Positions 22,652-57,595 of a DNA stretch of 64,000 bases are shown here, piece by piece. A program made the translations under genes and the position numbers. Source of the stretch: a virus; the IMG/VR virus record IMGVR_UViG_3300009601_000004, positions 28,737 to 92,736 of that record; one strand, given 5' to 3'. The notes beneath the pieces were generated by a model. That model was given only the letters and a program-made list of their open reading frames with translations, searched no databases and was not told the origin of the DNA. The stretch's first letter is position 1, and every line of letters begins with the position of its first letter.

Positions 22652-22661
22652 CGCTAGACTG
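22652..22661 (+). promoter_or_regulatory. CGCTAGACTG motif copy 1 (candidate promoter element)
   Basis: Exact 10-mer about 20 nt upstream of ATG 22681. Confidence 0.55.
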
Positions 22662-22680: not shown

Positions 22681-23133
22681 ATGGACCCAGTAGCAACCGA
22701 TTCCAGTGCGCCGTATGTGACCACCGACACCGACATCGACACCGACACCGACAGTGGCACTGCTGGCGTGTCGGTCGTGATTGACCCCATACTACCGCCG
22801 GGTGCCTTTGACCCTACCGACCCGATGTTCACGGCTGTGGCGGTCATCGTCGCCATTACGGTCACCGCCGCTGCCCGCAAGCTCAGCAAGGTTAAACCGG
22901 CACTGGCCTCGCTGATGTCTGCCATCACGCCACCGTTTGCGATACTGCTCGCCGTGTTTGCGCGGGCGGCTGCAGACATTGTCTGGGGTGTGCCCTTCAG
23001 CGCTGACGTGCTGGGGCAGGGCCTTTTTGCTGGGGTGGGCGCTGTCACTGGCCACACGTCGTGGTTGAGCTTTACCAAGCACTTCCCGGCCTTCATCTCA
23101 CTGCTGTTCCGCAAGACGTCAGCCGATGAGTGA
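22681..23133 (+). CDS. Multi-pass membrane protein (holin-like candidate)
   Basis: AGGAGG RBS; about three hydrophobic segments; acidic DT-repeat N-terminus. Confidence 0.5.
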   Translation: MDPVATDSSAPYVTTDTDIDTDTDSGTAGVSVVIDPILPPGAFDPTDPMFTAVAVIVAITVTAAARKLSKVKPALASLMSAITPPFAILLAVFARAAADIVWGVPFSADVLGQGLFAGVGAVTGHTSWLSFTKHFPAFISLLFRKTSADE

Positions 23134-23797
23134 CCCTTTCGACGAGTACACCGAGTTCCTTGACAGGCTCCCTCGGATGCCGACGAACCCTAGCCCAGCG
23201 GAACAAAGCCACTTTATGGCGGAAATGTGGCGGTCGGCGTCAGCTAACTCCATGGTGCTGGCTCGTGTCGTGCGTGAAAACACGCAGGCACACAAAGACG
23301 GTAGCTCGCTGTACCGTGAGCTACTGGAGGAGCGGCGGGAAGCTCTGCGGCGCCAGGCGGGCCGTACGGATCACAGCCAGGTCGCCGCCGACCTTTTGTC
23401 TGTAGGGCCCCCACCAGCACCGCCGATGAGCGCGCCGTTGTCCGTGCCCGTCCTGCCGTCTCTGATGACCCAGCCAGCCCCGCTACCAGCCCCAGCTGTA
23501 GAGATTGTGGCCCCAGCGGCCAGCGCACCGGCAGGGCCGGTAGCCGTCGCCAAACACTGGTTAGACCGACTAAGAGAACTGCCTCTACCCATTCAGCTTA
23601 CCTCGCTTGTCCTGGGTCTTGGCTTCTTGGGCATCATCGTAGGATTCTTTCGTTTGGACATGCAGTACAAGGAAGCATCCATCCGAAGCAATTCCGCAGG
23701 TGCCACGGAATTGGTTTCACCTGTTGCGCCTGTTGCGCCTGTTGAAACATCGGAGATGTCGACGCGCGACGGAACTGGATCCACCAACCTAGACTAG
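23126..23797 (+). CDS. Single-pass membrane protein
   Basis: LTSLVLGLGFLGIIVGFF segment; Pro-rich linker. Confidence 0.55.
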   Translation: MSDPFDEYTEFLDRLPRMPTNPSPAEQSHFMAEMWRSASANSMVLARVVRENTQAHKDGSSLYRELLEERREALRRQAGRTDHSQVAADLLSVGPPPAPPMSAPLSVPVLPSLMTQPAPLPAPAVEIVAPAASAPAGPVAVAKHWLDRLRELPLPIQLTSLVLGLGFLGIIVGFFRLDMQYKEASIRSNSAGATELVSPVAPVAPVETSEMSTRDGTGSTNLD

Positions 23798-32299: not shown

Positions 32300-33433
32300 T
32301 TAGTGCAGGCCTCGGACCCCACCGCCAAGCGAAACAGAGCGAAGCCCCGACATGCGGTTCGAGCTGCTTTGCTTGATGTGGATGGTACCGCCCTTGATGG
32401 ACATGTCGGCGTTGCTGTGCTTGTACCCGCGCGACTGTGCCCATGCACGCGCGCTAGTGGGTGTGAACTGCGGTCGAGGGAAGACAAGCACTTTCATGGC
32501 CTGTGGGTTTTTGCGGGGCTTCGTCATCAGCTTAGCCATGTGTGCCGGTCCTTTGGCCAGGATGGGGTCGATGGTGCGTATAGCTGCGGCGTCGCCTTGG
32601 TCGGCGAGGTCGGCGAGGCGAAATAGACGCTCCATCTCTGGGACATTGGCGTTGCCCTGCTTGTACGCGGTGTGCGAACCTTTACCTAGCGTGGACAAGC
32701 GAGTGGACTTGAGCTGCAGCTCGACGGGCACTTCAACCATGCGCCCGTCTTCGGTTTCCAGCTCGCGCATCAGCGTGAAGTGGTAAGCGCGGTAGCCGTT
32801 GTTGGGGCTGGTGTAAAAGTCGTCGTCTAGCTTGGCGCGGCCCAGTGCCCCGCCTTCGATGATTTTGCGCATACTCTCCACACCATAGCGGTCGGGCATT
32901 ACGATGGTGGTGGCTACCACGTCTGTAAGTCCCTTCTTACCCACAAGACGCTTACGGCGCAGCTTGTTGATCATCGAGTAGGGCGTCTTGACGCGTCCAA
33001 TGAATTTGCCACCTCGCTTGGTTGCGATCTGTTCCACGTCACGCCTGACGTCTTGAAAGAGCCCCTGCATCGAGTCGCGGTAATCCAGCAGCTTACCCAT
33101 CTCTTCAGACAGCTTGGTCTCTTCGATACGGCGGGTGTTCTGTTTGCCGTAGGGTTCAGGGTCGTCAACCGCTGGGATGCCGTCCCCATCGAAATCGTTG
33201 AAGAACGCCGGGTAGTCCTTGCGGCTTAGGCGTGTGTCACCTGTCGCATGGACTGCGTACTCTTCCGCTCCGCTGTTTGGTCTGACCGAGGGACGCACCA
33301 CCATGACAGCGTGGCCTTCGCCGTCGTAGACGTGACACGGCTTGTTGGTCGCTGCTGCCTGTTGGTGAGCGCGCCGTAGTGCGTTCTTTTTGCGTGTGTA
33401 AACTGTCGAACGGCCGTCAATGGTGAAGGGCAT
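32300..33433 (-). CDS. RelA/SpoT-type small alarmone synthetase (SAS) domain protein with extra N- and C-terminal modules
   Basis: GRVKTPYSMINK, LTD, GYRAYH, VELQLKS synthetase motifs; no HD hydrolase domain. Confidence 0.8.
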   Translation of the reverse strand: MPFTIDGRSTVYTRKKNALRRAHQQAAATNKPCHVYDGEGHAVMVVRPSVRPNSGAEEYAVHATGDTRLSRKDYPAFFNDFDGDGIPAVDDPEPYGKQNTRRIEETKLSEEMGKLLDYRDSMQGLFQDVRRDVEQIATKRGGKFIGRVKTPYSMINKLRRKRLVGKKGLTDVVATTIVMPDRYGVESMRKIIEGGALGRAKLDDDFYTSPNNGYRAYHFTLMRELETEDGRMVEVPVELQLKSTRLSTLGKGSHTAYKQGNANVPEMERLFRLADLADQGDAAAIRTIDPILAKGPAHMAKLMTKPRKNPQAMKVLVFPRPQFTPTSARAWAQSRGYKHSNADMSIKGGTIHIKQSSSNRMSGLRSVSLGGGVRGLH

Positions 33434-33436
33434 GTG

Positions 33437-34402
33437 TCATCTCCGGGTCATGTATAGAGCGATGGCGTAGGCGTCCCAAGTGTGTCGATGCTTGCGCAGA
33501 CGTCGGGGTAGCCGTGGGTTGTTTTTGTCGTTGACCAGGTCCTGCAGTTCACGCCAGACACGCGAATCGCGGCCTACTTCGGTAGGTGTCAGCCCCAGCA
33601 AAGAAGAGGCCCAAGTGCGTTTGTCTATGACGGTTCGGCCTTGGCTTGCCCCATCGGAAGCAATGGCGTTGACGACGTCGGCACTCCGCTTGTCCTTGCC
33701 GCCGCCCCACGTCTCTTCCACGACCAGGCGATAGGTGCCTTGCGCGAGCTGTGCGGCTCGTGCGGCGATGTGCTCGCCGATACCGGCCATCGTATCGAAC
33801 GTCAGTACCTCACCGCTCCCTGCGGCTTCTAGCAGCCCTCGACCGCCTTTACTGTCTTCGTCCCAAGACCAGCCCCAAGCACCCAAGATGCGCCTGCCAT
33901 CTGCCGTGATGAGGACGGCGGCACCGCTGGGGCCGTCGTCGACTGCGAGCACTGGGTTAGCGTGGCGCGGGTTGCGCTTGACCGTCGGTGTGCTGCGGGC
34001 CAGCAGCTCGATACGACCCGTCAAGGTGGGACCGTTGAGTGACTGATAGCCTTTCGTGATGAGCTGGTTGCTGTACGACGCAGCGACACCAGAGGCGTGC
34101 GAGACGGTGATGTGATGTGGGCCCACAGAAGGAAGTCCACGAGGCAGCTCAACGACCAGAGCCTGCGCCTGCTGGTCTTGCGCCACTCCTACCACTTTCA
34201 TGCGCACTGCACGCCCGACAAGGTCAGGCAGAGCGGACAGCGCGAGTGTGACGTGGTCCGCAGTGACATGGGGATGTGCAGGCGCCACGGCGCGTAGCAC
34301 AGCTCGCCGTGACTTAGGGGACAGCTTGACCGCGGTGTATTCGCGACGACGCTTTGTCATGCGTCGATACCGGAGGCTTGCAGCTGGAAGGCGTGGGGCC
34401 AC
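33437..34402 (-). CDS. 2H phosphoesterase fused to a RuvC-like nuclease
   Basis: Two HxT motifs (DHVTL, HHITV); then VLAVDDG, LVVEE, W..LLG, DAYAIA. Confidence 0.65.
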   Translation of the reverse strand: MAPRLPAASLRYRRMTKRRREYTAVKLSPKSRRAVLRAVAPAHPHVTADHVTLALSALPDLVGRAVRMKVVGVAQDQQAQALVVELPRGLPSVGPHHITVSHASGVAASYSNQLITKGYQSLNGPTLTGRIELLARSTPTVKRNPRHANPVLAVDDGPSGAAVLITADGRRILGAWGWSWDEDSKGGRGLLEAAGSGEVLTFDTMAGIGEHIAARAAQLAQGTYRLVVEETWGGGKDKRSADVVNAIASDGASQGRTVIDKRTWASSLLGLTPTEVGRDSRVWRELQDLVNDKNNPRLPRRLRKHRHTWDAYAIALYMTRR

Positions 34403-36723
34403 TTCGCAATGGTGTCCTCCATCCGCAGCATCTCAGCGTGCTCTTTGCCTGGTAGACGCCGACCGGCCTCTGCGTAGCCCATCATGCGGTCTTCCATCGC
34501 AACGTACTGCCGGTACATCTTCGTAGCCACTGCCATCGTGGGGAGGCCGTCGTTGTCGTCGTTGTCGTTGCTGGCCTGGATGGCCTTCACGAGCTTGCGC
34601 CAGTCCCAGTTTGGGATGCCAAAGACTTCCGCAACGTGCATCAGCGCGGCACCTGTAAGGATGCGCTGCTGCACCTGACCACGCCGGCTCCAGTTGAACC
34701 CGCGCAGCTTGCCATGGATGGGAGCACCCCGCTCGTAGGCGAGTTTGATGCGGTCGTCTGTGATCTCGATGCCGACCTCGGTACCGTCAGGCGCAACCAA
34801 GTTGCCGGACACACCCGAGGCCTCTTTGCGCACGAGGATGTCATCGAGCATGTCGACGGCGGCTTTCAAGTCGGGCCCCGTGGCTTTACCTTGACGCCTC
34901 GCGGCAATCAATAGCTTCAGCTTGCGCAGCTGGATACCGGCTTGACCCCCTGACTCTTCCATGCGTGCTTTGTTGATCTCACGCTGGGTGACTTTGGCCG
35001 CTTGCTTGATCAAGTCGAGCCAGTCCCCTTGCCGGCGGTCGGCACTGTCCGACTTTTTTTGCTCCCGGCGCTCATTGCGACCACCTCGGCCTGTGATCAT
35101 CCACGATGTGGTACCTGCCCGCGAGCCCAAAAAGGCGCGGAAAGCGGCTTTGTACTTTGTCAGGAAGCGGCCTAGCTCGGCAATGGCTGTACGGCGCTGG
35201 TTGACTGTATCCGCCATGTCTGCAGCCTCTTCTGCCATGTCATTCCACATACTGGCGTACTCACGGCGGTACTGCTCTCCGCGCCTCTCCGCTGAAAATG
35301 ACGTGCCTTGGAAGGCCATCGACGCCGTTGAGCTGCTGACGTCACGTATGGACGCTCTAGGTGCCGGCAGGTAGACCTCGTCGTCAGGTGTGATGCGCGG
35401 TGGTAGCGGCTGAGGCTTGCCTAAGACCTTCTCGTACTTGGCTATCAACGCGTCCATCTTCGCGTCAGCAGACGCTTTCCGCGCACCCTGTGTGGCTTTG
35501 AGCCGGTCACGGTGGACCTTGTCACTCGCAGCCTTACTGGCAACCGCCTGTGATAGCCGAGGTACGCGCTGACTCCAGAGAAAGCGGAGAATCTCCTCAC
35601 TGGTGTCCCCTGGGCCAAACCAGCTATTCCAGCCCCCGTAGCCATTCTTCTCGCCTAAGCGCACACCGAACACAGCGGCAACCAAGTCACCGCCAGCGTA
35701 GTTGCTCATCATCTCGCGGGTCTTGCCTCGGCCCTTCCGCCCGTCTTTGTCTACGGTTTTGGCGATGGCGTCAGCCAGCTGTACCATTGTTTTCTTTGCG
35801 GGAGATGCTGGGGCATTCGTCCACAGCAACGGAGGGGTGTTGAGACCCGACATACGCCGCACTAGGAGGTTGACCACCTGACGCGACTCGTCACCTGCAT
35901 CCTCTGTTGTGATGGCAAAGTATGCGCGAGACCTGCCGTCTTTTTTGGGCTTAGCCCACTTGCGCATCTCGATGGTGAAGGGCTGACCCTCCAAGCTGAC
36001 AGGCTCCCCTTCCCAGGCAAAAGCGCGTACTGCGGGGATCAATTCGGGATTCTTCTCGTGGTAGTGGTCATCCGCCACCATTGCGCCTGGTAGAGGTGTT
36101 CCTTCACTCCGCGTGGCTTCAACCACACTCCGCCACTGCATGGCGGGGTACTCGATGCCTTCAATGGGCTTCGGGATGGCCTTCGCGGCGGGTGCCTTCT
36201 TGGCTGCTATGGACTGTAGGTAGTACCCACTACCCACACCTTTCGGCTTTTTCAGCTCGACTTGCAGGCCGCCAGCGTTCACGAGGTCCGTGATCTCTTG
36301 GCGCATTTTAGGTGTGATGCGCTTTACCGTGGTGTGCCCGACCGAACCGCGGTGACTACGCTTCTGCGTCTCACGTACGAGGTCGCCACGCATAAACCCC
36401 CGCTGCTCTGCGTAAGACAAGCGACTGTTGAGGCTCGACAGGCCCCACCGCATATCGGGGTCACCGACACCACGGTGCAGCCGGTGGGCCGCGTCGTTGA
36501 GGATGTACTCCGCGATGGCTTCGGCGTGAGTTGTCTTCGTCTTCTTGGCTGCTACGGCTTCCGCTACTTCGTAGATGGGACCGCCCTTACTTACGAGGGT
36601 CTTGCGGTGCTTCATCATCCAGGTGGCGGTCGAACGTGTCGAGCTGTCCGAGGCCATGATGGCGTGAACACGGTCAAAGATGTGCGTTGCGAGTGACGCG
36701 TTGCTGGGATTCTTACGTCTCAT
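34357..36723 (-). CDS. Large multidomain (polyvalent-like) protein
   Basis: N-terminal RKNP plus shared leader domain; SWMITG and GFNWS..QRILT motifs. Confidence 0.6.
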   Translation of the reverse strand: MRRKNPSNASLATHIFDRVHAIMASDSSTRSTATWMMKHRKTLVSKGGPIYEVAEAVAAKKTKTTHAEAIAEYILNDAAHRLHRGVGDPDMRWGLSSLNSRLSYAEQRGFMRGDLVRETQKRSHRGSVGHTTVKRITPKMRQEITDLVNAGGLQVELKKPKGVGSGYYLQSIAAKKAPAAKAIPKPIEGIEYPAMQWRSVVEATRSEGTPLPGAMVADDHYHEKNPELIPAVRAFAWEGEPVSLEGQPFTIEMRKWAKPKKDGRSRAYFAITTEDAGDESRQVVNLLVRRMSGLNTPPLLWTNAPASPAKKTMVQLADAIAKTVDKDGRKGRGKTREMMSNYAGGDLVAAVFGVRLGEKNGYGGWNSWFGPGDTSEEILRFLWSQRVPRLSQAVASKAASDKVHRDRLKATQGARKASADAKMDALIAKYEKVLGKPQPLPPRITPDDEVYLPAPRASIRDVSSSTASMAFQGTSFSAERRGEQYRREYASMWNDMAEEAADMADTVNQRRTAIAELGRFLTKYKAAFRAFLGSRAGTTSWMITGRGGRNERREQKKSDSADRRQGDWLDLIKQAAKVTQREINKARMEESGGQAGIQLRKLKLLIAARRQGKATGPDLKAAVDMLDDILVRKEASGVSGNLVAPDGTEVGIEITDDRIKLAYERGAPIHGKLRGFNWSRRGQVQQRILTGAALMHVAEVFGIPNWDWRKLVKAIQASNDNDDNDGLPTMAVATKMYRQYVAMEDRMMGYAEAGRRLPGKEHAEMLRMEDTIAKWPHAFQLQASGIDA

Positions 36724-38837
36724 TGAGCTTTCCCTGCGAATGTAAGGTACCCGGCGCTACCGCCGACGGTGTGAGCTTCCCCGTGCTTGTACAGTCCGCG
36801 AACCTTCCACACGTATTTTTGGCGACGCTGCTCTGCGTGCTGGCCTGCGAACCACTGACCGCTCACCCCTTCCAATAGGTCCAACTGCAACCCCGGTGCT
36901 AGGTCGCGGATAGTCACACGCGTTTCACTGCCCTTGTTACCGCCGGAAAGGGCCACTAGCTCCAGTGTGGGGTCGCCCGCGTCGCCTGACACGTCTACGA
37001 CCACCCAGAGCTTGCGGCCCCCCTTGAGCTTCACCACGTTGTTTAGCCAGTTGTACAAGTCTGGGTGAGCCTTCGCGCTGTACGGCGCAGGCTTGACCTT
37101 GCCGAGCTTGCTCATGTCGACGTGCTCGACAGGTATGGTGAGACCGCCCACCTTCGCTGTGGTGGTGTGCGTGATGGCTACCCCACGAGCTTCGTGGGCA
37201 AGTGAATGCTCTAGTTCTTCGTTGTAGCTGTCACGCAGCTTTGCCGTCTTGCTCGCATTTGCCTCGCGGGTCGTGGCTGATGCGCGAGTGTAGGCGCGGT
37301 AGCGCAGCTTCTCCAACTTGGCTGTCTGCTTGTCAATGTCATGCCGTACCGCTTTGGACGGTCGCGGGGTGCCCCGCTCGTGCAGAGTGATTCCCTGCCG
37401 ATGTGCCTCGACACGTGCGGACCTGGCTTGCTCAACTGCGTCGGCAAACCCTGGGTCTTTGTACCCCTTTTGAATGACGTCCACAGCAGCTGACATAGCA
37501 GCTTGCAACTGAGCCGGTGTGCGCCCCTTTGAGATGGCTACCGGCTTGCGCTTGGGCTTCTGCGCAGTCCACGTCTTGTACGAGTCCTGCACATCCTCAA
37601 GGGTGTACGAACTGGAGTGGGTGGGCTTCTGGGGCCCCATCATGTAGCCGCCTCGACGCCGCGCGTGCTCCTTTAGGTAGTCAGCTACACTCATGCTCGC
37701 ATAATGCTTCAGTGTCGAGAGCAGGGCTCGCAGGGCTCGCTGCGCGCCAGACCCGAAAGATTGGCTGTACCAGTGCCAGCTGTACGCGCCACGCAATGTG
37801 TAGGCTGCTCGTTTGCCGCCGCCGGAGTTTGTTACCCGCCAACCTTCGGGAAGGTGGCGCTTAACGTCCCGAATGGACGCGACACGACCTTTAGCCTCGG
37901 CATCCGCAAGGGCTTGCTCAACGACCTTAGCTCCGACCTGGCTTTCCGCTAGGAACGCGGTCACTTGCTCTGCGAATAGCTTGTCAGCGAGGGCGTAGGC
38001 TGCGCTATCGCGACGTCCTTTGGCCGCTGCGGCCCGGTCGTCTTGGGCGACTTGGGCGGCGCCGGCTTTCGACGCGACGATACGGGGGTCTCGATACCCA
38101 GCACCCGCAAGCACTTGCTTCCCGATAACGGGCCAAAACTTCCACGAGTTTGCGAGCTTCTGCAGAGATGCCCTGCGGGTCTTTTCCATCGTGTGTTCGA
38201 TCTTCTGGCCCTTGTAGAACAGATCAGCGTCCCAGCGTACCCATGAGCGCTCCCCAACCTTGTTGACCTTGACGGTGACTCGGTCGCGGATGCCGGCGTC
38301 GTCAAGGATGCCATTAAAATAGGCCGTCGCGTCTTTGACGTTGGTACCTACCTCGGAACCGTCACTCTCCTTGCTCCCGGTAAGTACACTCTTCGAGGTC
38401 TGTGGCTGCAGAACGCGCAGAATGGTTTGGTTCGCAGCTTCCCAGCCTGCGGGGTACTTCAGTCCTTCGGCCGACATCAGATGCCGCACAAGCTCAAAGC
38501 CGTAGATGCTCGCCGCCATGGCACGCATGGAGCCAGTGAGCCCTTGCCCCTCTAGGTAGAACTTGTTCACCAGTGTGGCCGCACGCTCAACTTGGTCCAG
38601 CAACGGCGTGTCCTTGCTCCGCAACCCAGCAAACCAATCAGGTACCTCCGCAGCCGGCGGTAGCTCGTCGTCGAGCCCACGTTTAGCAGCGACCACAGAC
38701 GCGGCCTCTGTGAAGATGCCAGCAATCAACGCAGCGCGGTTGCGCTCCATGAAGGCGGCGGTTGCCTGGCCCTCGCGGGTCGCCTGCAGGTATGCGTGCG
38801 TTGCTGCGTAGAGACGGGTTGGTAGTGAGATGGCCAT
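36720..38837 (-). CDS. Large basic multidomain protein with shared leader domain
   Basis: 705-aa ORF coupled to the next gene; N-terminal shared motif. Confidence 0.65.
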   Translation of the reverse strand: MAISLPTRLYAATHAYLQATREGQATAAFMERNRAALIAGIFTEAASVVAAKRGLDDELPPAAEVPDWFAGLRSKDTPLLDQVERAATLVNKFYLEGQGLTGSMRAMAASIYGFELVRHLMSAEGLKYPAGWEAANQTILRVLQPQTSKSVLTGSKESDGSEVGTNVKDATAYFNGILDDAGIRDRVTVKVNKVGERSWVRWDADLFYKGQKIEHTMEKTRRASLQKLANSWKFWPVIGKQVLAGAGYRDPRIVASKAGAAQVAQDDRAAAAKGRRDSAAYALADKLFAEQVTAFLAESQVGAKVVEQALADAEAKGRVASIRDVKRHLPEGWRVTNSGGGKRAAYTLRGAYSWHWYSQSFGSGAQRALRALLSTLKHYASMSVADYLKEHARRRGGYMMGPQKPTHSSSYTLEDVQDSYKTWTAQKPKRKPVAISKGRTPAQLQAAMSAAVDVIQKGYKDPGFADAVEQARSARVEAHRQGITLHERGTPRPSKAVRHDIDKQTAKLEKLRYRAYTRASATTREANASKTAKLRDSYNEELEHSLAHEARGVAITHTTTAKVGGLTIPVEHVDMSKLGKVKPAPYSAKAHPDLYNWLNNVVKLKGGRKLWVVVDVSGDAGDPTLELVALSGGNKGSETRVTIRDLAPGLQLDLLEGVSGQWFAGQHAEQRRQKYVWKVRGLYKHGEAHTVGGSAGYLTFAGKAQ

Positions 38838-38882
38838 CAGTGCGGGCGCTCCCTGGTGTGTCGGGGCCTTTGCGTACCCAGA

Positions 38883-38892
38883 CAGTCTAGCG
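38883..38892 (-). promoter_or_regulatory. CGCTAGACTG motif copy 2
   Basis: Exact 10-mer upstream of - strand start 38837. Confidence 0.55.
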
Positions 38893-38909
38893 GCAGGGCA
38901 TCGGAAGTG

Positions 38910-39002
38910 GCATTAACCCGCTGGCGGGTTTGCACCCGCTGGCGGGTTCGGCTATAGTCTTTGTGCCGGTGGGAGTTCCCCCACCATTCTGGAGTTCCCA
39001 TG
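38910..39002 (+). repeat. Promoter/operator/RBS cassette copy 1
   Basis: Two ACCCGC-TG-GCGGGT palindromes flanking TTGCAC; TTGCAC-N17-TATAGT; GGTGGG/CCCACC hairpin; GGAG RBS then ATG. Confidence 0.85.
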
Positions 39003-39221
39003 ACAACCGAAGCAATCGCCCAAGCAATCACCGCACAAATGAGCCCAACAGACATCGCAAACTTTACCCCTCAAAATTGGAGGGACGGCATCAGCGCCAT
39101 GCTCGTGGATGGCTGGGAGGGCGCTGACCTTGACGGCGTCTTGGATGCCATCGAGGACGACATCAACGATAGTGGTGACAACGACGCGGACGACTTCGCA
39201 GACAACTGCTGGGAAGGGTAG
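39000..39221 (+). CDS. Small acidic protein
   Basis: ATG at the end of cassette 1; very Asp-rich C-terminus. Confidence 0.7.
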   Translation: MTTEAIAQAITAQMSPTDIANFTPQNWRDGISAMLVDGWEGADLDGVLDAIEDDINDSGDNDADDFADNCWEG

Positions 39222-39312
39222 CATTAACCCGCTGGCGGGTTTGCACCCGCTGGCGGGTGCGTTAGGTAGATTATGCCGGTGGGAGTTCCCCCACCATTCT
39301 GGAGTTCCCATG
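39221..39312 (+). repeat. Promoter/operator/RBS cassette copy 2
   Basis: Identical to copy 1 except for the 15-16 nt -10 region. Confidence 0.85.
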
Positions 39313-39525
39313 GAAATGCAACAAGTCACAGTTACCATCACGCTCGAAATTCAAGCAGAAGCCCCCGCAGGCATGAGCGAGTCAGACCTCTTGGAGGCCT
39401 GCGAAAACGCGGCAACGTGGGGCACCCTCGCCGACGGGGAAGGCGTGGCATTGTGCTCCACTTCCCACGGACCCTACTTCAGAGGGACAGACGACCCTAC
39501 AATCACCATCGAACTGGGAGATTGA
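39310..39525 (+). CDS. Small acidic protein
   Basis: ATG at the end of cassette 2. Confidence 0.65.
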   Translation: MEMQQVTVTITLEIQAEAPAGMSESDLLEACENAATWGTLADGEGVALCSTSHGPYFRGTDDPTITIELGD

Positions 39526-39529
39526 ACCC

Positions 39530-39733
39530 ATGCCGACTTATGTCGAATGTTTCTGTTGCGACAAAGCCGTTCGGGTGGACAAACCCCACTGGCGCGTCCA
39601 CATGCTAACCAGCGGTGAGATCGTAGCGCAGGGCTACGAGTCGAACGAATCACAGGGCACGTTCGGTATCGGCCCTTCCTGCCGCAAAAAGTACCCGCTC
39701 GCCTATCGGGTGAAAGAGCCTCACCATTGCTAG
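39530..39733 (+). CDS. Small Cys-containing protein
   Basis: CFCC ... IGPSC; GGAG RBS. Confidence 0.6.
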   Translation: MPTYVECFCCDKAVRVDKPHWRVHMLTSGEIVAQGYESNESQGTFGIGPSCRKKYPLAYRVKEPHHC

Positions 39734-39804
39734 GCAGAGGACCTCAACACGGCGCTCGACCTCGTGATCAAGCTCGCCACTCACCCCTACGCGGAGATGC
39801 TCTA

Positions 39805-40044
39805 ATGACCCAGCAACCCACACTTACGAGCCGAGTCGCGGCCATGATTACAGCAGGTGCGACCTACCTTGAGGTAGAGAACGCGGTCCATGACATGCTG
39901 ACGGAGCGGTACCCCAACCGTGAAGACATCGAGGAGGAGGCCATGAGGATTGCGACGCGCGAATACGAGAAGGTGCCTGTCGATGACGACGATAGTGGTG
40001 ACAACGACGCGGATGACTTCGCTGACAACTGCTGGGAGGGGTGA
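39805..40044 (+). CDS. Small acidic protein sharing its 17-aa C-terminus with 39000-39221
   Basis: GGAG RBS; ends DSGDNDADDFADNCWEG. Confidence 0.7.
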   Translation: MTQQPTLTSRVAAMITAGATYLEVENAVHDMLTERYPNREDIEEEAMRIATREYEKVPVDDDDSGDNDADDFADNCWEG

Positions 40045-40334
40045 TGCTCGGTGAAACCACAGAAGAGACAGACTTACTTAACCGGGCAGAGTGCGCGGTT
40101 GGCCTCGCTACCGAGTTGGCGCGTGACAACGGGCTCATCACGGCTCTGGTCGAGGGCCGTGCTCGCTACATTGGTGACCATACGGTCGCCGTGTTCGACG
40201 CTGCCATGTTCGCAGAGGTGGCCCGCATGGTGCAGGCAGAGACAGAGGCAAACATCGCGCTTGCTGCTACCCACGAGAAGGAGCGGCAGGCCGAACTGGT
40301 GGAACTCGCGCGTTACGATGCCGAGGTCTACTGA
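40041..40334 (+). CDS. Small acidic hypothetical protein
   Basis: GTGA overlap coupling. Confidence 0.55.
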   Translation: MMLGETTEETDLLNRAECAVGLATELARDNGLITALVEGRARYIGDHTVAVFDAAMFAEVARMVQAETEANIALAATHEKERQAELVELARYDAEVY

Positions 40335-40522
40335 TGATCTACCTAGAACTCATCCGCACCCTGCCAGAAGGCACACAAGGTCGCATCATTGCGGCGGCTC
40401 ATCGCATCGCAGATGCCCGCAACATCGAAGCCAACGGGCAAGGTGCCTACTACGCCAGCCTGCGCATCCTCTATTACGACGAAGAGACGTGGAAAGATGC
40501 CTACCTTGAGGTGTGCGCGTGA
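40334..40522 (+). CDS. Small hypothetical protein
   Basis: TGATG coupling. Confidence 0.55.
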   Translation: MIYLELIRTLPEGTQGRIIAAAHRIADARNIEANGQGAYYASLRILYYDEETWKDAYLEVCA

Positions 40523-40823
40523 AACACTCCCGCACCCCTCACCAAGCGGTACCCACTGAGCACAACGCGTTTGTCGAGCGCTACGGCTTCACACTCTCCC
40601 GCGGCGGCTTCCCGCTTGCCGGCCCTCAAGCTGTGCGTGCGGCCATCGCTCGTGGTGTCTGGTCTTGGAGTATCCTACTGTCTCTACAGACCCGAGCGCA
40701 GCGCCGGACGCTTGTAGACCTGCTCTACACTCACGAGTGGCTCGCAGTTCGCAGCGGCTGCGTGTTGGGTGCGGTGACGCGAGACGCCGCCGATGCTGCA
40801 TTGACCTACGCTACGGAGTGAAG

Positions 40824-41336
40824 CTAACCTATGAGGCGCTCTGCCTCTTTGTGCAGATCACGCGGTAGCCGTTCACCATCAACTAGCCACTCTAGGTAGC
40901 TGGCGGGCACGTCGGCTAGGGCCTTGCCTCGGTGCTTGCCGAAGGGCATCACGTACTCCTCGCCTACGCTGGCAAGGAGACGTTCCCTGGCATCGCCAGT
41001 AACGACGCCTCGGTCGATGCGGTCTAGCAGACGGTACACCTCGAAGGCGTATGTTTCATTGCCCATGGCCGCGCGGGTCTTTGCTCCTATGCGCGGGTCA
41101 TCGTGGTACGTCGCCTGGCGGCTGTCACTCTGATTCACCGACGCATCTCGTGTGCTGCGACTTGCCTCGTGCCGCCTTGCTTCACGGCGCTCACGCGCTT
41201 TCGCACGCACAGCTGGCGATGTCTTGTACTCGTGTTGCCCAGTGCCGCCGCAGGAGAAGCAAACGCCCCCTTGCACATGGTGCGCCCAGTTGAGTCGTCC
41301 TGTGCCATCGCACTTGCCGCAAGTCTCACGATACAT
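40824..41336 (-). CDS. DnaJ-type zinc finger plus DUF3820-like (MPFGKH) domain protein
   Basis: CGKCDGTG, CFSCGGTG; MPFGKHRG..L.DVP.SYLEWL. Confidence 0.75.
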   Translation of the reverse strand: MYRETCGKCDGTGRLNWAHHVQGGVCFSCGGTGQHEYKTSPAVRAKARERREARRHEASRSTRDASVNQSDSRQATYHDDPRIGAKTRAAMGNETYAFEVYRLLDRIDRGVVTGDARERLLASVGEEYVMPFGKHRGKALADVPASYLEWLVDGERLPRDLHKEAERLIG

Positions 41337-44300
41337 CAGCTCTCCCGTCCGAGTAAATCCCAGCGCGCGGCACCCGCAACGGGTCCGGCCTCCCATCGTA
41401 TTTTGCGGGTCGTGCCTTTGGCGGCTTGTACACTTGCTGCCGATCGAGCGCCTTGCTTGCCACGCTTGCCACCGATGAGGGCGACAGGCCGCAACCCTTG
41501 CGATTTAAGGGCCTTGTAGGTATGGCCCCCTTCGCTCTCTAGGCTGTAGGTCACGAACAACCAAGGGCCGTCGGCGTCCCCTCGCTTGCTTGCAGGTGCC
41601 GCTTGTAGAACGGCGCTCGCAAGCATGGAAGATGCACCCGCGACACTGCCGTCGCTTGCGATGCGTGTCAGCTCTAGGACGTTGCGCTGGTCGAGGCGCT
41701 TCCATGGTGCGGAGGGATGACCTGCAGTCGCGACTGCTACCAAGCGGTCACCCCGGAAGGCACCTAGTGCGTACATGGTGCGGCGAGGCAGTTGCTTGAG
41801 TTGGCTGTGGTGAGCAGCTAAGAAGGCCCTAGCGGCCTCCCGGTCGACAGGTGCTAGGCGTAGCTTCTTACCCGCCTCGCCCACTGCCAGGTAGGTGAGC
41901 ATGTCAGCCATTGAGGCGACAGCTAGCCAGGTAGGAAGGGTCTGGTCGTCGTTGCGGGATGCGTCGTCGCGGGTGCGTCCTGTGTCGTGCTTCTTGCCTC
42001 CGGTGTGGCGATAGATCGGGTCACCGAAGGGCGAACCATCCCACCTGCCAGGGTCGGTCTCCATGGCGAGTTTGAACGCATGGACGGCCACAGAGCGGTC
42101 AAGGGCCTTGTCTGCGTTGAGCCCCATCGTACCGAGCACGGTCTCCATGGCTTCGGTGCTTGTCTCGTCGTCTGTCTTGCCTGCCAAGGCTTCCCACGCC
42201 CACGAGGCTTCGGGCTGTCCCAGCCAGTTCTTTGCAGTGCTTACGAGCTGCGCTGCCTGGTCAGGAAGGTCAGAGGGTAGGCCAGCGGGCCGACTGCGCT
42301 TGGTGGGTGTCTTGGGGCTGTAGCGCTTCCACAGACCAGCTTTCGGGTCGCCTGCAATGACCTCGCGGACCGCTTGACGGGTGACGGCGGGTGTCTCCAG
42401 TGTGTGAGCTTCCGCGCGTATCTCGGTCTCCATTGCCTGATGGAACACCTGATCCATGTACCAGGGCGAGTCGTTGGGGGCGTCGGCCTGCATGAACTCT
42501 GTCGGGTCCGCTGCCATGGCCCTACGCCAAGCCTGTGCAACCTTTCGAGGAGGGTTGTAGGCTTTGACCAGTGCGGAGGCCAGACGGTGCCGTGCGGCCT
42601 TCGTCATCCAGTCGAGATCACTCTCCACCTCGGTGCCGTCCATCGACCCACCGGGCGCCCACCGGGTCTCAGCGACGTCGCGACGCGCGGTATCTTTCGT
42701 CTTCATGTAGGGGCCAGGGTGGTGGCGGTTGCCCACCTTGCCGCGCAGGTAGACGCTATCGAAGTAGACCTCTGCACGTGGGTAGGCTTCGCGCACCATG
42801 GACAGGCGTTCTTGTGCTCCAGGTGCGCCGGGTGCGAGTCCCAGGAAGTGGAACGCATTCGGTGGGCTCTTGCGTACCGCACGCAGAAAGGCGCCCAGTT
42901 CTTCGATGGTGGTCGCGTCCTTCTTGCTGGGGATGCCGGCCACGAGCGTTGCACCACGTAGCTCTTTGCTCGCGGCGTTCCACATCTTGGCTTGGTCCCA
43001 CTTCCCGCCACGCTGCAGAGGTACGATGAGCCGGACGGGGGCAAAGGCCCCCAGTGCCCGCAGCTCGGGTGCGTAGCGGTCCCACAGCTTTACGGTGTGT
43101 GCAGGGTCGGCAACGCGGTCAGGGGCCACCAGGAAGAGACCGGGGGCGTGTGCTGGCCATCTGCTAGCAAGCCGATTGTAGACCCCTAGAACCTCTGGCC
43201 AGTTTGGTGCTTTGGCTGCGTCCCAAGCGGGCCCGGTTGCTGTGAACTCAACCTCCGAGAAAGCACCCGAGTCCACGAAGACAGGGACGGCGCTCGCGAT
43301 GTCGAGCAGTGCACCGACAGAGGCCTTGGTCAGCTCGGTCACAGCAACGCCGACGGCCTGACCCGCAGCACCGAGTGCGGCAATTTCAGCGGATCGAGTC
43401 GCACCACTGGCGAAGTAGACAGGAGGCTGCACGGCCTGCGTGCGTGAGCCGCCCATCCCGCTGTCACCGAGGTTTGAGCATATGGAGAGGTCGCCCAGTG
43501 GGAATAGGCCTTGGTCGGTGCCGGCCGACATCGAGCCGGCTGGCGGTCCCGGTCGACGGCCATCGGCTTGCTGCAGGGCGTTGCGGACGTGAGCGAGTAC
43601 AGCTCTGCCCATGTTCACTGGGATGCCGTTCCCTACTTGCTTGTACTCTTCTGCTTGCCCACCTGCGAAGACGTACCAGGAGGGAACATCTTGGAGCTTT
43701 GCGGCCTCTCTAGGCGTGAGCTGCCGGACCTCGCCTAGCTCTGGCGACAGGGCGCCCTTCTTGCCTTCCGGCTGGTGTCCAGGCTCCACAGTGATGCCGT
43801 AGGGGATTCCCTTGTACATGCTCTTGGTCATGGCCGGTGCCAACCAGCGGCCCACCAGGGCATCACGTTTGCCGGTCGGCCACCAGTTCGCGAAGGCCCC
43901 ACCGTAGTCGATGAACCCCTGCAGCTTCAGACGGTTGCGGCCATCCGTCAGCTCGCGATTGAGGTAGGCGATTGACTTGGGTGTCAGCTCGTCTCGGATG
44001 ACGTCGTTGTCGGCTTGCTCGTAGTTGCTGCCCATCTTGCAACCCCCACACATCCCGTCAAGGTTGCCGATGTTCACACACGAGCTGTACCCGAAGCCCC
44101 CGCAACATCCGTCGTTGAGCCGGTCGAATGCACGGGTATAGACGTTGGCCGATCCGTATGGGATCGATCGAGGGTCCAGACGGGTCGGTCTAGGGCCTGC
44201 TCGAAGGTAAGAGGCCCACGGTGCTCCCTTTGGCCAGAGCACGTAGAAGGCCCGTTCCCGCGTCTGCGGTGTACCGAAACTCGCAGCCTTCAAGACCCAC

Positions 44301-44869
44301 ACGGTCCCCTCGTACCCGGCCTCGTCGGCGAGCGTCTTCCACCAGACATCCCAGTAGGCTGACCACTTGCCAGCGCGGACGGTATTTGGGCTGTTTTCCA
44401 TTACGATAACGCGAGGCTGTCCTTCGCGTGCCCAGCGGATAACTTCGGGAAACAGGTTGCGAGGGTCCAGCGGTCCAAGTTGCCTACCCGCAGTGCTCCA
44501 CCCTTGGCAGGGTGGCCCACCTGTGAGGACATCGAGCCCTCCGCGGGGGATGTCCGGTGTCCACTTCGTTGCGTCGGCCTGCTTTGCTTTGCCTGGCAGC
44601 TGCCTGTCGAGCGTCTCAACCGCGGCGGCGTCGCACTCGACTAGCTCCTGCAGGTCGTAGCCTTCGATGAACCCAGCGAGCGCCAGCAGTCCACCACCAG
44701 CAAAAACGTCGGTCATGGTGTAGCGGTCACTCTTGCGGGGTAGGCGTCGCATGGCCTCGTTGAGCTGCACAAGGACAGGCGCACGATTGCGCACCATCCA
44801 CGCCGCCGTGTCGTTGGGCAGTGCTTTGTGCAGAGCCTCAAACAGGTCGCTGGTCGTGCGTACCGCCAC
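41336..44869 (-). CDS. Fusion of C5 cytosine DNA methyltransferase, TGT/DpdA-like transglycosylase and Mom/XF1762-like GNAT
   Basis: FAGGG, GGPPCQ, EN, QTRER, LTPREAAKLQ, QVGN; then VDSGAFS, APD..D, PLQ, HFLG, FDS; then F...HH, LVAVA..G.P, LELTR, LFVTY. Confidence 0.8.
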   Translation of the reverse strand: MAVRTTSDLFEALHKALPNDTAAWMVRNRAPVLVQLNEAMRRLPRKSDRYTMTDVFAGGGLLALAGFIEGYDLQELVECDAAAVETLDRQLPGKAKQADATKWTPDIPRGGLDVLTGGPPCQGWSTAGRQLGPLDPRNLFPEVIRWAREGQPRVIVMENSPNTVRAGKWSAYWDVWWKTLADEAGYEGTVWVLKAASFGTPQTRERAFYVLWPKGAPWASYLRAGPRPTRLDPRSIPYGSANVYTRAFDRLNDGCCGGFGYSSCVNIGNLDGMCGGCKMGSNYEQADNDVIRDELTPKSIAYLNRELTDGRNRLKLQGFIDYGGAFANWWPTGKRDALVGRWLAPAMTKSMYKGIPYGITVEPGHQPEGKKGALSPELGEVRQLTPREAAKLQDVPSWYVFAGGQAEEYKQVGNGIPVNMGRAVLAHVRNALQQADGRRPGPPAGSMSAGTDQGLFPLGDLSICSNLGDSGMGGSRTQAVQPPVYFASGATRSAEIAALGAAGQAVGVAVTELTKASVGALLDIASAVPVFVDSGAFSEVEFTATGPAWDAAKAPNWPEVLGVYNRLASRWPAHAPGLFLVAPDRVADPAHTVKLWDRYAPELRALGAFAPVRLIVPLQRGGKWDQAKMWNAASKELRGATLVAGIPSKKDATTIEELGAFLRAVRKSPPNAFHFLGLAPGAPGAQERLSMVREAYPRAEVYFDSVYLRGKVGNRHHPGPYMKTKDTARRDVAETRWAPGGSMDGTEVESDLDWMTKAARHRLASALVKAYNPPRKVAQAWRRAMAADPTEFMQADAPNDSPWYMDQVFHQAMETEIRAEAHTLETPAVTRQAVREVIAGDPKAGLWKRYSPKTPTKRSRPAGLPSDLPDQAAQLVSTAKNWLGQPEASWAWEALAGKTDDETSTEAMETVLGTMGLNADKALDRSVAVHAFKLAMETDPGRWDGSPFGDPIYRHTGGKKHDTGRTRDDASRNDDQTLPTWLAVASMADMLTYLAVGEAGKKLRLAPVDREAARAFLAAHHSQLKQLPRRTMYALGAFRGDRLVAVATAGHPSAPWKRLDQRNVLELTRIASDGSVAGASSMLASAVLQAAPASKRGDADGPWLFVTYSLESEGGHTYKALKSQGLRPVALIGGKRGKQGARSAASVQAAKGTTRKIRWEAGPVAGAARWDLLGRES

Positions 44870-44872
44870 GCT

Positions 44873-46981
44873 CTACCCCTTCTTCGCGGCTTTAAGCGTC
44901 GGGTGGCCGGTCTCGTGTGGACGTCCACCACCGATGCGGTCGCTTGTCCGAATCCACGCCGTGTTGCCTCGTCCTGTCTTGGCGATTGAGACACTGCCCC
45001 GCACGTAAGCGTCTCCTACCTTTTTCCAGTTCGCCTTTTCCGCTTTGGCCGCGAGCGCTGCACGCTTGGGCTCGACGTGACCAAAGTAAGGCGACAGATC
45101 TATACGCACACCTGTAGCAGCTCGAACACCTTGCCACGCTCGACTGTGCATGACAGACTCTCGGTCTTTGATGCCCGAACCCCCTAACATCTGATGGAGC
45201 TGGAAAGCGAGGGACGCGAAAAGCGTGTACTCGTTGGAGATCTCTAGGGCCTGGTCGTACTGGTCGCCGTCTCTGGGGATGGTGAGCTTGCGCTCTTTGA
45301 ACCACTTGCGGTTGATGGCCTCTTCGACGATGTCAACCGCGAAGTCGCGCGCTTCGTCCTCTTCCCCCGCATACCAGCTAGCGGTCTCTTCCTCCTCTAC
45401 GGCCGCAAGCACAACCTCCTGCAACTCCTTCCCCGTGGGGTCCTTCCAAGACTCCTCCGCATTGCCGGCAGAGACGCCAAAGATGGCAGCAACGTACATG
45501 GCAACCAGGAAGTTCTGCATCTCCTCTGCACCTGGGGCGTCGATGTCGTCCGTCAGCACATCGCCGTCAGACTCGGCTACCATCTTCTTGTAGTAGGCCA
45601 CGACTGTTGGGATGCCTTGAGCACCGGCTTTGCCGCAGGCTGTGCGGACGGTGTTGTACCAGTCCTGCGGCGTCTTGTGGAGGCCCTTGACGGCGCCAGA
45701 GCGCAAGATCTGGCCAAAGGCGAGCCAGTCGAGTGCAGCCGCTTCGCGAATCAGCGTGAACGAGCCGAACGCATCCTTGGGCTCTGCGTTGAAGTTGCGA
45801 CTACTGAAGCCCATGATCTTCGCATCGTATGCGTTGGTGGCCAGATACTTCGAGGCTTCCCCAACGAGCAGCACAGCACCATAGCCCCCCTCGAAAGCTC
45901 CCATGAGATGCAGTGGTGCCTTATCCCCTGCGTGACGTCGACCACTCCCACTCCAGTCACCTAGAGCCTGTCCACGCTGTGGCTTCGCTTTGGGGGAGGG
46001 CTTCACCTTGGCGCGCTTGGCGTTGACAGCATCTGCGGTCTTGTTGAACTCTGCCATGACCTTATGAGACTCGACCTGCATCCAAAGTGCCGTATCTCGC
46101 GTAGCTGGGTTGGCCTGGAGCACGGCGTAGACTGCATTGAAGAGTTGGACACCTGTGACGCCTGCTCGTGTGGTCGCGGGTGCTTTAACTCTCGCTGGTG
46201 CCTTTTGTGCGGTGTACACGCCGCTCTGATCTACCAGCCACTGGATAGCTTGGTTCTTTGGCGGGAAGGCCTGCGCTGCACGGCTCTGATACTGCTTGTC
46301 CACAAACATGAAGTCGGCTTTAGTGGGCGCGCTAGCTCCCGCTGGTCGGCGTGCCTCCCAGCGTTCTGCCCCAGACATAACGCCACCCTTGATGTGGTCT
46401 GCTGTGCCTATGAACCGCCGACGCCGCCGATAGTCAGTGAGGTAGACGTCACCTTGCTTGGTCAGTTCTGCCCCATAGGTTTCGCCGGCCTGACTAGGCC
46501 CGCCCTTGGGTGTCATTGTGTAGGACCCAGGCTTGACAGCTCCCGTGGCTTTCGTCACTGCTGCTGTAGCGACTGCGGTGCCTGGCCCACTCGCCACAGT
46601 GCCGCCCGTGACCGCGTGCCGCTTGATCAGTCGGAGGACGTTGGCCACCGCTTGCTGCGGCTTGCTGTCAATCGCCCACTTACGCTCGGCTTTCGGCATC
46701 TTGCCGTCAATGAAGACGTGCTGATTTTGCTTCCAATGGGGGAGACCCACAGCCTTATGGTCGCCCCAGAAGCTGTGAATGAAGCCGCCCGCTACGCTTA
46801 CCTTAGCGCCACCTGGGACCGTGTCAAAGTAGTATTCAGTGCCACCCAGCGGGTCTACCTCCGCACGGTAGGGCACGCCCAGGCTAGCCACACCATTTGC
46901 AAGCGCTATAGTTAGCGCTATCTGCAGTTGTTTGCGGTCCTTCTCGGTTGCTCGGTACAGACGTTCGGCCATGTGTTCCAT
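44873..46981 (-). CDS. Large multidomain protein with an internal copy of the shared domain
   Basis: 702-aa ORF; LFNAVYAVL..TALWM..AVNAKR; true start may be 46972. Confidence 0.65.
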   Translation of the reverse strand: MEHMAERLYRATEKDRKQLQIALTIALANGVASLGVPYRAEVDPLGGTEYYFDTVPGGAKVSVAGGFIHSFWGDHKAVGLPHWKQNQHVFIDGKMPKAERKWAIDSKPQQAVANVLRLIKRHAVTGGTVASGPGTAVATAAVTKATGAVKPGSYTMTPKGGPSQAGETYGAELTKQGDVYLTDYRRRRRFIGTADHIKGGVMSGAERWEARRPAGASAPTKADFMFVDKQYQSRAAQAFPPKNQAIQWLVDQSGVYTAQKAPARVKAPATTRAGVTGVQLFNAVYAVLQANPATRDTALWMQVESHKVMAEFNKTADAVNAKRAKVKPSPKAKPQRGQALGDWSGSGRRHAGDKAPLHLMGAFEGGYGAVLLVGEASKYLATNAYDAKIMGFSSRNFNAEPKDAFGSFTLIREAAALDWLAFGQILRSGAVKGLHKTPQDWYNTVRTACGKAGAQGIPTVVAYYKKMVAESDGDVLTDDIDAPGAEEMQNFLVAMYVAAIFGVSAGNAEESWKDPTGKELQEVVLAAVEEEETASWYAGEEDEARDFAVDIVEEAINRKWFKERKLTIPRDGDQYDQALEISNEYTLFASLAFQLHQMLGGSGIKDRESVMHSRAWQGVRAATGVRIDLSPYFGHVEPKRAALAAKAEKANWKKVGDAYVRGSVSIAKTGRGNTAWIRTSDRIGGGRPHETGHPTLKAAKKG

Positions 46982-46993
46982 CCTTCGTATCCG

Positions 46994-47009
46994 CAGTCTA
47001 GCGGTCTAG
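46994..47009 (-). promoter_or_regulatory. CGCTAGACTG motif copy 3 (extended CTAGACCGCTAGACTG)
   Basis: Exact match in the short intergenic gap upstream of 46981. Confidence 0.6.
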
Positions 47010-51483: not shown

Positions 51484-51493
51484 CAGTCTAGCG
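51484..51493 (-). promoter_or_regulatory. CGCTAGACTG motif copy 4
   Basis: Exact 10-mer 25 nt upstream of start 51459. Confidence 0.55.
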
Positions 51494-56356: not shown

Positions 56357-57382
56357 CTAGGAGCCGACGAGCACGGCGCCCATGGCACCAGAGAAGCCGC
56401 CCGGTGAGACCGAGAAGCCAGGGCCCATGCCCATGTCAGCGGAGAGGAGGCCGTAGCCACCGGTAGAACTGGACACGAGGGCGCCCATGCCGGCCACTGG
56501 CTCATCACCACCGACCTGCTGTTCAGGTGTCGCGATGCCGGCTTCATTCGCCAGCTGGCGTGAACGCATCTTGACGTAGCCAGCACCCGCACCTGCAGCG
56601 GTCATCAGACCCGGCAGATTGGCGATGGAGCCAAGGAACGGGATCTTCGAGATACCGGCCATCTTCAGGCCACCTGCAACGACTGCACCAGAGAGAGCGG
56701 AGAGCAGCGTAAAGTACGCAAACTCATTCTCTTTCAGTACGGCCGGGATCCAAGTCTGCGACGAGACAATGGGCGACAGGCGGAGTGGGATTTCCATTGC
56801 GACACCGGCCAAGAGGCCAGCAGGCATGGAGCCGAACGCCGCCGCGAGGGTACCGCCAATGACAGGCACCTTCTTGAACATCTTGCCAATGCCGGGATTG
56901 CGGCGGACACGGCGAGAGCCCCGACGTGTCTTGCTCGACAGCTTCCATGGATTGCGACGCGGACGCATGGCTCCACGGCCCTTACGTGCGCGCTTGCGCT
57001 TGATCTTGCCGGCGTGAATGCGACGAACACCTGGACGCGGGTTGCGGCGTTTTGCCTGACCACGGCGAGAGGTGCGGCGTTTTGCCTGCCCACGGCGGGC
57101 GGTGCGGTGCTTCGCCTGCCCACGGCGGGCGGCGCGGCGAGGGTTGCGACGAGTTGCCCGGCGACGATTGCGACTGGCAAGCATACGGCGGCCAGAGTGA
57201 CGGCCCTTGCGGCCCTTGCGGCCCTTGCGGCTTGTGCGGCCCCGACGGGTCTTGCTGCGACTGCGGGGATTGCGGCGGGTGACCCGAGGTGCCTTACGGC
57301 GAGCCTTACGGCCTCGACCCGGATTGCTGATCACCGTCGCGATTGTCCGGCGGCGGCTAGTTGCGGTGCGACGACGCGCCAT
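56357..57382 (-). CDS. Arg-rich protamine-like protein with C-terminal hydrophobic helices (core/membrane protein candidate)
   Basis: Five RRNP, three RRGQAK repeats, then hydrophobic segments and a Gly/Met-rich tail. Confidence 0.65.
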   Translation of the reverse strand: MARRRTATSRRRTIATVISNPGRGRKARRKAPRVTRRNPRSRSKTRRGRTSRKGRKGRKGRHSGRRMLASRNRRRATRRNPRRAARRGQAKHRTARRGQAKRRTSRRGQAKRRNPRPGVRRIHAGKIKRKRARKGRGAMRPRRNPWKLSSKTRRGSRRVRRNPGIGKMFKKVPVIGGTLAAAFGSMPAGLLAGVAMEIPLRLSPIVSSQTWIPAVLKENEFAYFTLLSALSGAVVAGGLKMAGISKIPFLGSIANLPGLMTAAGAGAGYVKMRSRQLANEAGIATPEQQVGGDEPVAGMGALVSSSTGGYGLLSADMGMGPGFSVSPGGFSGAMGAVLVGS

Positions 57383-57579: not shown

Positions 57580-57595
57580 CTAGACCGCTAGACTG
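57580..57595 (+). promoter_or_regulatory. CGCTAGACTG motif copy 5 (extended CTAGACCGCTAGACTG)
   Basis: Identical to the extended copy at 46994-47009; upstream of the RHH gene. Confidence 0.6.

Follow-up and report, generated by a model that had tools for sequence, protein, structure and literature searches.

Results

The DNA analysed here, called the window, is a stretch of 64,000 nucleotides (nt), bases 28737-92736 of the 92,736-bp IMG/VR record IMGVR_UViG_3300009601_000004, which is classed as having direct terminal repeats. The virus is uncultured and marine. Among public sequencing runs its DNA is found in one marine metagenome only, probably the source of the record, and no RNA dataset is listed. 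The G+C content is about 61% throughout the window. Two adjacent minus-strand operons, P0004-P0003 and P0002-P0001, the latter followed by a gene for a 321-residue protein and a RelA/SpoT gene, encode four large proteins that carry a small shared domain, which we call the module (Table 1). A first-pass annotation of the window had described a domain of about 45 residues common to these four otherwise unrelated proteins, N-terminal in three and internal in one, with one copy on a DNA-modifying enzyme. All of the segments that it had quoted are present, where it had placed them, in minus-strand open reading frames (ORFs), and leave-one-out profiles and orthologues show that the domain is real, with a length of about 45-55 residues. 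It is N-terminal in P0001, P0002, and P0003 and internal in P0004. P0003 is indeed a DNA-modifying enzyme, with the short module at amino acids (aa) 5-46, a C5 cytosine methylase domain (PF00145) at aa 51-426, an unassigned stretch in the middle, and, at aa ~1003-1160, a Mom-like/XF1762 domain.

A profile hidden Markov model (HMM) was built from three copies at a time and searched, with composition correction applied, against the 1102 six-frame ORFs of the 92.7-kb genome. Each time, the omitted copy was the best match outside the training set, at the correct place, with E-values of 4e-7 for P0001, 1.5e-7 for P0002, 5e-8 for P0004, and 0.05 for P0003. Thus, the alignment proposed in the first-pass annotation is statistically significant for three copies and weaker for P0003. 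Comparisons between families gave similar results. P0008, a member of the P0004 family, and P0010, of the P0001 family, match by blastp with E = 4e-7 over 52 residues at 50% identity, and hhalign of the P0001 family against the P0004 family gives P = 2.7e-6. The module is the top match, in the same register, in five of the six family pairs compared by hhalign, and neither blastp nor hhalign comparisons show any other region common to the four carriers. By these sequence comparisons, the copies in P0001, P0002, and P0004 are certainly homologous.

The copy in P0003 is shorter and weaker. From the consensus given in the first-pass annotation, P0003 does not have the third-helix motif, AxxVxAK(R/K). 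Nevertheless, a seven-sequence HMM built without P0003 finds aa 19-39 of this protein with E = 0.0056, while the next ORF scores two orders of magnitude worse, and when the N-terminus of P0003 was shuffled, none of 5000 sequences reached the real score. This copy is probably homologous but shortened. The alternative that the four segments resemble one another by chance or composition, being Ala-rich and helical with no common origin, could draw on the Ala-rich composition, on the marginal P0003 copy, and on the weak pairwise scores of single copies, which range from E = 5e-4 at best to above 1. However, the leave-one-out E-values of about 1e-7 were obtained with composition correction, the cross-family blastp match between orthologues has E = 4e-7, the register is the same in every comparison, and the shuffled P0003 sequences all fall short. 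For three copies, the sequence evidence already largely refutes a chance origin, and we consider it very improbable overall.

The DNA identity among the copies is only 42-48%, which shows that the similarity is old and at the protein level, where identity is 20-30%. The identical residues are mostly encoded by different codons, and these two observations together rule out an RNA-level element or a recent duplication or conversion. No fifth copy was found in the genome. One candidate was rejected: Trp is absent, the alignment requires a 10-residue insertion, and the seven-sequence HMM misses it.

Table 1. Features discussed in the text, in window coordinates unless marked as genome coordinates.
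Feature	Position	Strand	Description
P0001	34357-36723	(-)	788 aa; function unassigned; module aa 10-62 (36538-36696), with MRRKNP before it
P0002	36720-38837	(-)	705 aa; function unassigned; module aa 4-53 (38679-38828)
P0003	41336-44869	(-)	1177 aa; Dcm plus Mom-like; short module (44732-44857)
P0004	44873-46981	(-)	702 aa; function unassigned; internal module aa 275-326 (46004-46159)
P0005	47015-49684	(-)	SNF2-family helicase directly upstream of P0004; no module
321-aa protein	33437-34402	(-)	Downstream gene of the P0002-P0001 operon; no module
RelA/SpoT-domain protein	32300-33433	(-)	Downstream gene of the P0002-P0001 operon; no module
Exact 10-mer CGCTAGACTG	38883-38892	(-)	46 nt upstream of the P0002 start
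Exact 10-mer CGCTAGACTG	46994-47003	(-)	13 nt upstream of the P0004 ATG
Other copies of CGCTAGACTG	21691-21700, 22652-22661, 51484-51493, 57586-57595; genome 6584-6593
(K/R)(K/R/Q)NP site regions	32300-36723, 56357-57382, 60193-61107
P0003 aa 1-440	43550-44869	(-)	Methylase part of P0003
P0003 aa 480-1177	41339-43432	(-)	Part of P0003 beyond the methylase
P0004 codon 259 (GTG)	46205-46207	(-)	16 residues before the module
190-aa ORF	40824-41396	(-)	Between the two module-carrying operons
Four small ORFs	39109-40821	(+)	Adjoining the 190-aa ORF
Rejected candidate copy	23069-23794

AlphaFold, used with the four-sequence alignment, gave a model of the module with a predicted local distance difference test (pLDDT) value of 84 and a predicted template modelling score of 0.67, with helices at residues 8-25, 27-38, 40-44, and 49-65 of P0001. 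A model of aa 1-440 of P0003, made with a 14-sequence alignment of its methylase clade, places helices at 6-16, 19-27, and 29-41 (pLDDT 82-92) in the N-terminal extension, before methylase motif I. The models show the module as a confident small three-helix bundle, predicted to fold independently. The only invariant residues are T, A, M, and K, and most of the conserved positions are hydrophobic. Since there is no catalytic-looking set of conserved polar residues, nothing suggests catalysis. The module is flanked by Pro/Ala/Lys-rich linkers, and the internal copy of P0004 lies between two of these.

The module is better kept than the rest of its carriers, with identities of 60 vs 44%, 82 vs 45%, and 71 vs 64% inside and outside of it; the second pair of values is for P0009 and P0002, in which the module also begins at the same place. 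This shows that it is under purifying selection. The combination of higher conservation, linkers, and absence of a catalytic signature fits an adaptor with a shared binding specificity. The module has no match in Pfam (none at E up to 1 for the four segments), PHROGs, or NCBIfam. Its profile gives nothing below E = 0.4 against PDB sequences, and Foldseek with the module gives nothing below E = 1 against PDB and BFVD. An exhaustive VIA-align search yielded a flat list of helical matches with a top Z of 4.9, and ESM Atlas gave generic helical matches only. These searches establish the module as a new domain family, absent from known families and without a fold match.

The HMM search for fusion partners that had been suggested in the first-pass annotation was run with a profile of the four segments, both by word index against 5.8 billion proteins, longer proteins only, and without an index against 1.84 billion cluster representatives. 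Among the latter, the true matches beyond the window proteins are orthologues of the same four families only. P0007 and P0008 belong to the P0004 family and have the module internally at aa ~275-335, and P0009 is a member of the P0002 family with an N-terminal module. The search did reveal one new arrangement, since in P0010, of the P0001 family, the module lies at aa 135-186, after a GNAT domain and the basic stretch KRQNPVRRRNP. Matches to P0011-P0013 were discarded as repeat artefacts, consisting of 3-11 partial stretches in each of these tandem-repeat proteins. The module is thus free in position, N-terminal or internal, and portable, as had been proposed, but it is rare and not a widely used tag. 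The further proposal that it is grafted onto varied effectors is not supported, because it is found on four families only, and because the neighbouring RelA/SpoT, 2H-RuvC-like, and SNF2 proteins do not have it.

A megablast search of positions 34000-47000 against GenBank phages and PLSDB plasmids gave no match, and neither did tblastn of P0001 and P0004 against phages; for P0003, the same search gave only distant Dcm matches with 28% identity. No usable relatives came from scans of viral contigs with P0001, P0007, P0010, P0033, and P0005, or of metagenome contigs with P0007 and the module-family alignment. Cluster records show that the P0001 and P0002 families occur together on contigs of relatives of 20,184 and 14,316 bp.

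The gene arrangement bears on whether the carriers act together. The start codon of P0001 and the stop codon of P0002 overlap (ATGA), an arrangement suggestive of translational coupling; the stop and start codons of P0004 and P0003 are 3 nt apart, and this pair appears to be coupled likewise. An exact 10-mer, CGCTAGACTG, is found upstream of both operons. It has seven exact copies in the genome, with about 0.12 expected by chance in the 64-kb window. Most are located just upstream of gene starts, and several have a second CTAGAC before them. From its sequence and placement, CGCTAGACTG is a candidate element that probably represents one viral promoter class with a -10-like TAGACT. One copy is 186 nt upstream of the primase gene and others precede genes of presumed structural blocks, so the 10-mer does not place the carriers in a late class.

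This arrangement would be consistent with mutual assembly, in which the module copies bind each other to build one multi-enzyme complex, a polyvalent protein split into subunits. The shared upstream 10-mer of the two adjacent operons, the apparent translational coupling within both pairs, and the adjacency of the P0002 and P0001 families that is kept on the contigs of relatives all agree with it. However, the 20-30% identity among the copies would be unusual for surfaces that must keep recognising each other, and look-alikes of the module in the methylase clade of P0003 occur in proteins that are known without their genomes. We consider mutual assembly quite improbable.

These look-alikes are N-terminal extensions found in most of the homologues of P0003, which come from uncultured contigs, the largest being 108 kb. 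Just before methylase motif I, the extensions have the pattern basic-(R)PS-h-h..h...(D/K)..W-h..H-R..h-L...(N/D)QP, and 10 of the 14 clade members aligned with P0003 show it in the form PS-h-h..W..HR..L..QP in this place. The orthologue P0033 retains the N-terminal extension of P0003. In hhalign, the clade extensions match the module profile in register with P = 6.5e-5 when P0003 and P0033 are included and with P = 0.018 without both, and an HMM made from the other Dcm extensions finds aa 8-45 of P0003 as the top ORF of the genome (E = 0.05). A region search with the N-terminal extension of P0039 returned only itself. The sequence comparisons are suggestive of the Dcm-clade extensions as wider, weaker relatives of the module. 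We also observed a conserved cluster of cysteines inserted in the methylase of this clade (P0003 aa 1-440 and homologues P0033-P0046). Its consensus is ...LNSGCCGG..C....C..C..., it corresponds to a low-confidence stretch of the P0003 model at aa 253-291, and from its sequence it may bind zinc.

Several copies of the module are flanked by AT-hook-like basic (K/R)(K/R)NP stretches or Lys-rich tails. RRKNP directly precedes the module of P0001, and KRQNP and RRRNP directly precede that of P0010. In the 110 ORFs, (K/R)(K/R/Q)NP occurs nine times, compared with 0.8 times in shuffled proteins, an enrichment of about 11-fold. Five of the nine are in an Arg-rich 341-residue protein (56357-57382), and the motif is also found inside the RelA/SpoT and 321-residue proteins and near the C-terminus of a 304-residue protein. 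Its sequence is similar to RGRP, the core of an AT-hook; a processing site is another possibility.

The bodies of P0001, P0002, and P0004 have no match in Pfam, PHROGs, or NCBIfam, and searches of PDB sequences with profiles and single proteins gave none below E = 0.4. An ESM Atlas model of aa ~454-697 of P0001 resembles DUF3560-type clusters (template modelling score by target 0.44-0.66), one of which carries YodL, DUF4316, and LPD16, domains of polyvalent proteins; sequence profiles do not show this likeness. The region of P0003 between the methylase and the Mom-like domain, about 520 residues, has no Pfam match. In P0004, the GTG codon 259 aligns with a Met of P0007 and P0008. Translation from this codon could yield a truncated protein in which the module is close to the N-terminus; the sequence shows no clear ribosome-binding site. 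Between the two operons, a 190-residue ORF has a short match to PF12843 (QSregVF_b; E = 2.6e-7), and four small plus-strand ORFs next to it have no matches.

The recognisable genes of the virus are those for PolA, primase, helicases, and proteins that are sigma-factor-like, ice-binding-like, and transglutaminase-like, together with an endolysin. No terminase, portal, major capsid, tail, MuF, scaffold, or maturation-protease family was found with PHROGs and Pfam in any ORF of at least 70 aa of the whole genome. Either the morphogenesis genes have diverged to an extreme degree, or they belong to a type other than that of tailed phages. The carrier genes adjoin replication genes and are outside any assembly module.

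Discussion

We propose, with a little less than even confidence, that the module is a non-catalytic adaptor and that its four carriers share one partner, the viral DNA or a DNA-bound replication and modification hub. Ancient domain shuffling would have spread this lineage-restricted module among the genes of two adjacent operons, both of which appear to encode DNA-modification and counter-defence-type proteins. The module would then give unrelated proteins the same binding specificity and bring them to one place. We rank the virus's own DNA, or a hub bound to it, first as the partner, and the interior of the assembling particle second. DNA is placed first because, throughout a phage-type C5 methylase clade, putative weaker relatives of the module lie ahead of the catalytic domain, and because basic stretches or Lys-rich tails flank several of the copies. 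In addition, the P0003 enzymes must act on viral DNA, and there is a weak resemblance to HMG boxes, which we take as a lead only.

HMG boxes are L-shaped three-helix DNA binders whose N-terminal strand is basic. Like them, the module has three helices and basic tails, several copies start with basic-Pro-Ser ahead of helix 1, and HMG boxes are among its best structural matches (SSRP1, Z = 4.9 with a root-mean-square deviation of 4.4 Å over 58 residues; CIC, Z = 3.8-4.0; Sox9, Z = 3.4). However, the deviations range from 4.4 to 5.9 Å, the helix lengths differ, and the Pfam HMG_box profile does not match any of the four segments at E up to 1. Several points weigh against the adaptor proposal. The HMG resemblance is weak, with Z of 3.4-4.9 in a flat list. 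With a net charge of -1 to +4, the module is only weakly basic, less so than would be expected of a domain devoted to DNA binding. Without P0003 and P0033, the significance of the link to the other Dcm extensions becomes only marginal. Finally, the gene set resembles, by analogy, effectors that other phages package (PMC5512222), and this would favour a role in the virion.

Such a role was the interpretation of the first-pass annotation, in which the module is a virion-addressing tag that binds a scaffold or core, and the four proteins are packaged and injected to counter host defence. The polyvalent and MuF-fused proteins of phages, which are believed to be packaged and injected, include RelA/SpoT, 2H, SNF2, and DNA methylase domains (PMC5512222), and the cluster here of SNF2, DNA methylase, RelA/SpoT, and a DUF3560-like region is typical of such effectors. 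All four carriers are basic, with isoelectric points of 9.3-9.9, and the (K/R)(K/R)NP stretch beside the P0001 module recurs in proteins of a putative structural block. In T4, a conserved address on diverse internal proteins suffices for encapsidation (PMC3012670). However, no capsid, portal, terminase, MuF, or maturation-protease family was recognised, the carrier genes are beside replication genes rather than within an assembly module, and CGCTAGACTG also precedes the primase gene. The module is a folded domain that also occurs internally, the most effector-like neighbours do not have it, and only four families have it among 1.84 billion representatives. As no head, portal, MuF, or maturation-protease gene is recognised, there is no contextual link between the carriers and particle assembly, and the comparison with P1 Dar and T4 internal proteins stays an analogy. 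The virion-loading role is not supported, and we regard it as possible but unlikely. A more specific form, in which the module is a position-independent folded address domain that loads P0003 and the three other large proteins into the particle, is somewhat less probable still.

Comparison with the known packaging systems shows where the resemblance ends. In T4 IPI-III and Alt, capsid targeting depends on a short peptide at the N-terminus, which works by way of the scaffolding core (PMC3012670). The prohead protease removes this peptide. As in T4, one conserved element is found on diverse proteins, and three of the four copies of the module are N-terminal. Unlike the T4 sequence of about 10 residues, however, the module is a fold of about 50 residues that tolerates internal positions in P0004, P0007, P0008, and P0010. 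There is also no recognisable scaffold or protease gene, although the morphogenesis genes of this virus are all unrecognisable. With MuF (SPP1 gp7), too, phages combine one constant module with different enzymatic bodies, and RelA/SpoT and 2H domains are among its known cargoes (PMC5512222). However, P0001-P0004 and the genome have no Pfam or PHROGs match to MuF (Phage_Mu_F) or to a portal protein, the module is about five times smaller, and the RelA/SpoT protein here is exactly one that does not have it. P1 DarB is a virion-borne adenine-type methylase fused to a helicase, with DarA and Hdf as partners, and in this virus the genes for a DNA methylase and an SNF2-type helicase are near neighbours that may form a counter-restriction pair. 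Unlike in DarB, the two activities are encoded by different genes, P0004 lies in between, the methylase is of the C5 type (PF00145) and is fused to a Mom-like domain, and no homologues of DarA, Hdf, or DdrA/B were found with Pfam and PHROGs.

The module finds its closest parallel in the LPD domains of polyvalent proteins in phages and conjugative elements (Iyer, Burroughs, Anand, de Souza, Aravind 2017, PMC5512222), and the general kind is thus already known, since small helical modules recur on the conflict proteins of such elements. Nearest among them is LPD36, which has four helices and lies on the N-terminal side of the adenine methylase in a methylase-SNF2 dyad (PMC5512222). The module is likewise a small, helical, non-catalytic domain on large conflict-system proteins, beside a DNA methylase, and the surrounding genes include SNF2, RelA/SpoT, and a DUF3560-like region. 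However, the methylase here is of the C5 type rather than the EcoKI/TaqI-like adenine type, and the proteins are encoded by separate genes rather than as one giant polypeptide. Domains are joined within P0003 (Dcm, unassigned middle region, and Mom-like) and within the orthologue P0010 (GNAT, module, and P0001 body), and no domains could be assigned in the other carriers. There is no Pfam match to LPD, zincin-like peptidase (MPTase), or ArdC-N domains, so that a zincin-like processing peptidase was not found, and a DUF3560-type structural look-alike is present in P0001 only.

What is the significance of the module for this virus? Small shared modules are a rare sequence-level handle on how viruses organise their orphan proteins. 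Here, the module links three uncharacterised proteins of 700-790 residues to a DNA-hypermodification enzyme, in a lineage with almost no recognisable genes, and its reach is limited, as only four families of proteins, all from a single uncultured marine lineage, have it. Because they share it, the four carriers are nominated as acting at one location or on a common partner. If the Dcm-clade extensions are related, then the ancestral home of the module would be the N-terminus of the methylase clade. Should the particle be the partner, the module would serve to predict injected cargo, and an address domain of this kind would represent a mode of cargo loading distinct from the T4 N-terminal peptide and MuF fusions, so that in this viral lineage the sequence would reveal which proteins are injected. 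With DNA or a replication hub as partner, the module would instead point to accessory factors of DNA modification.

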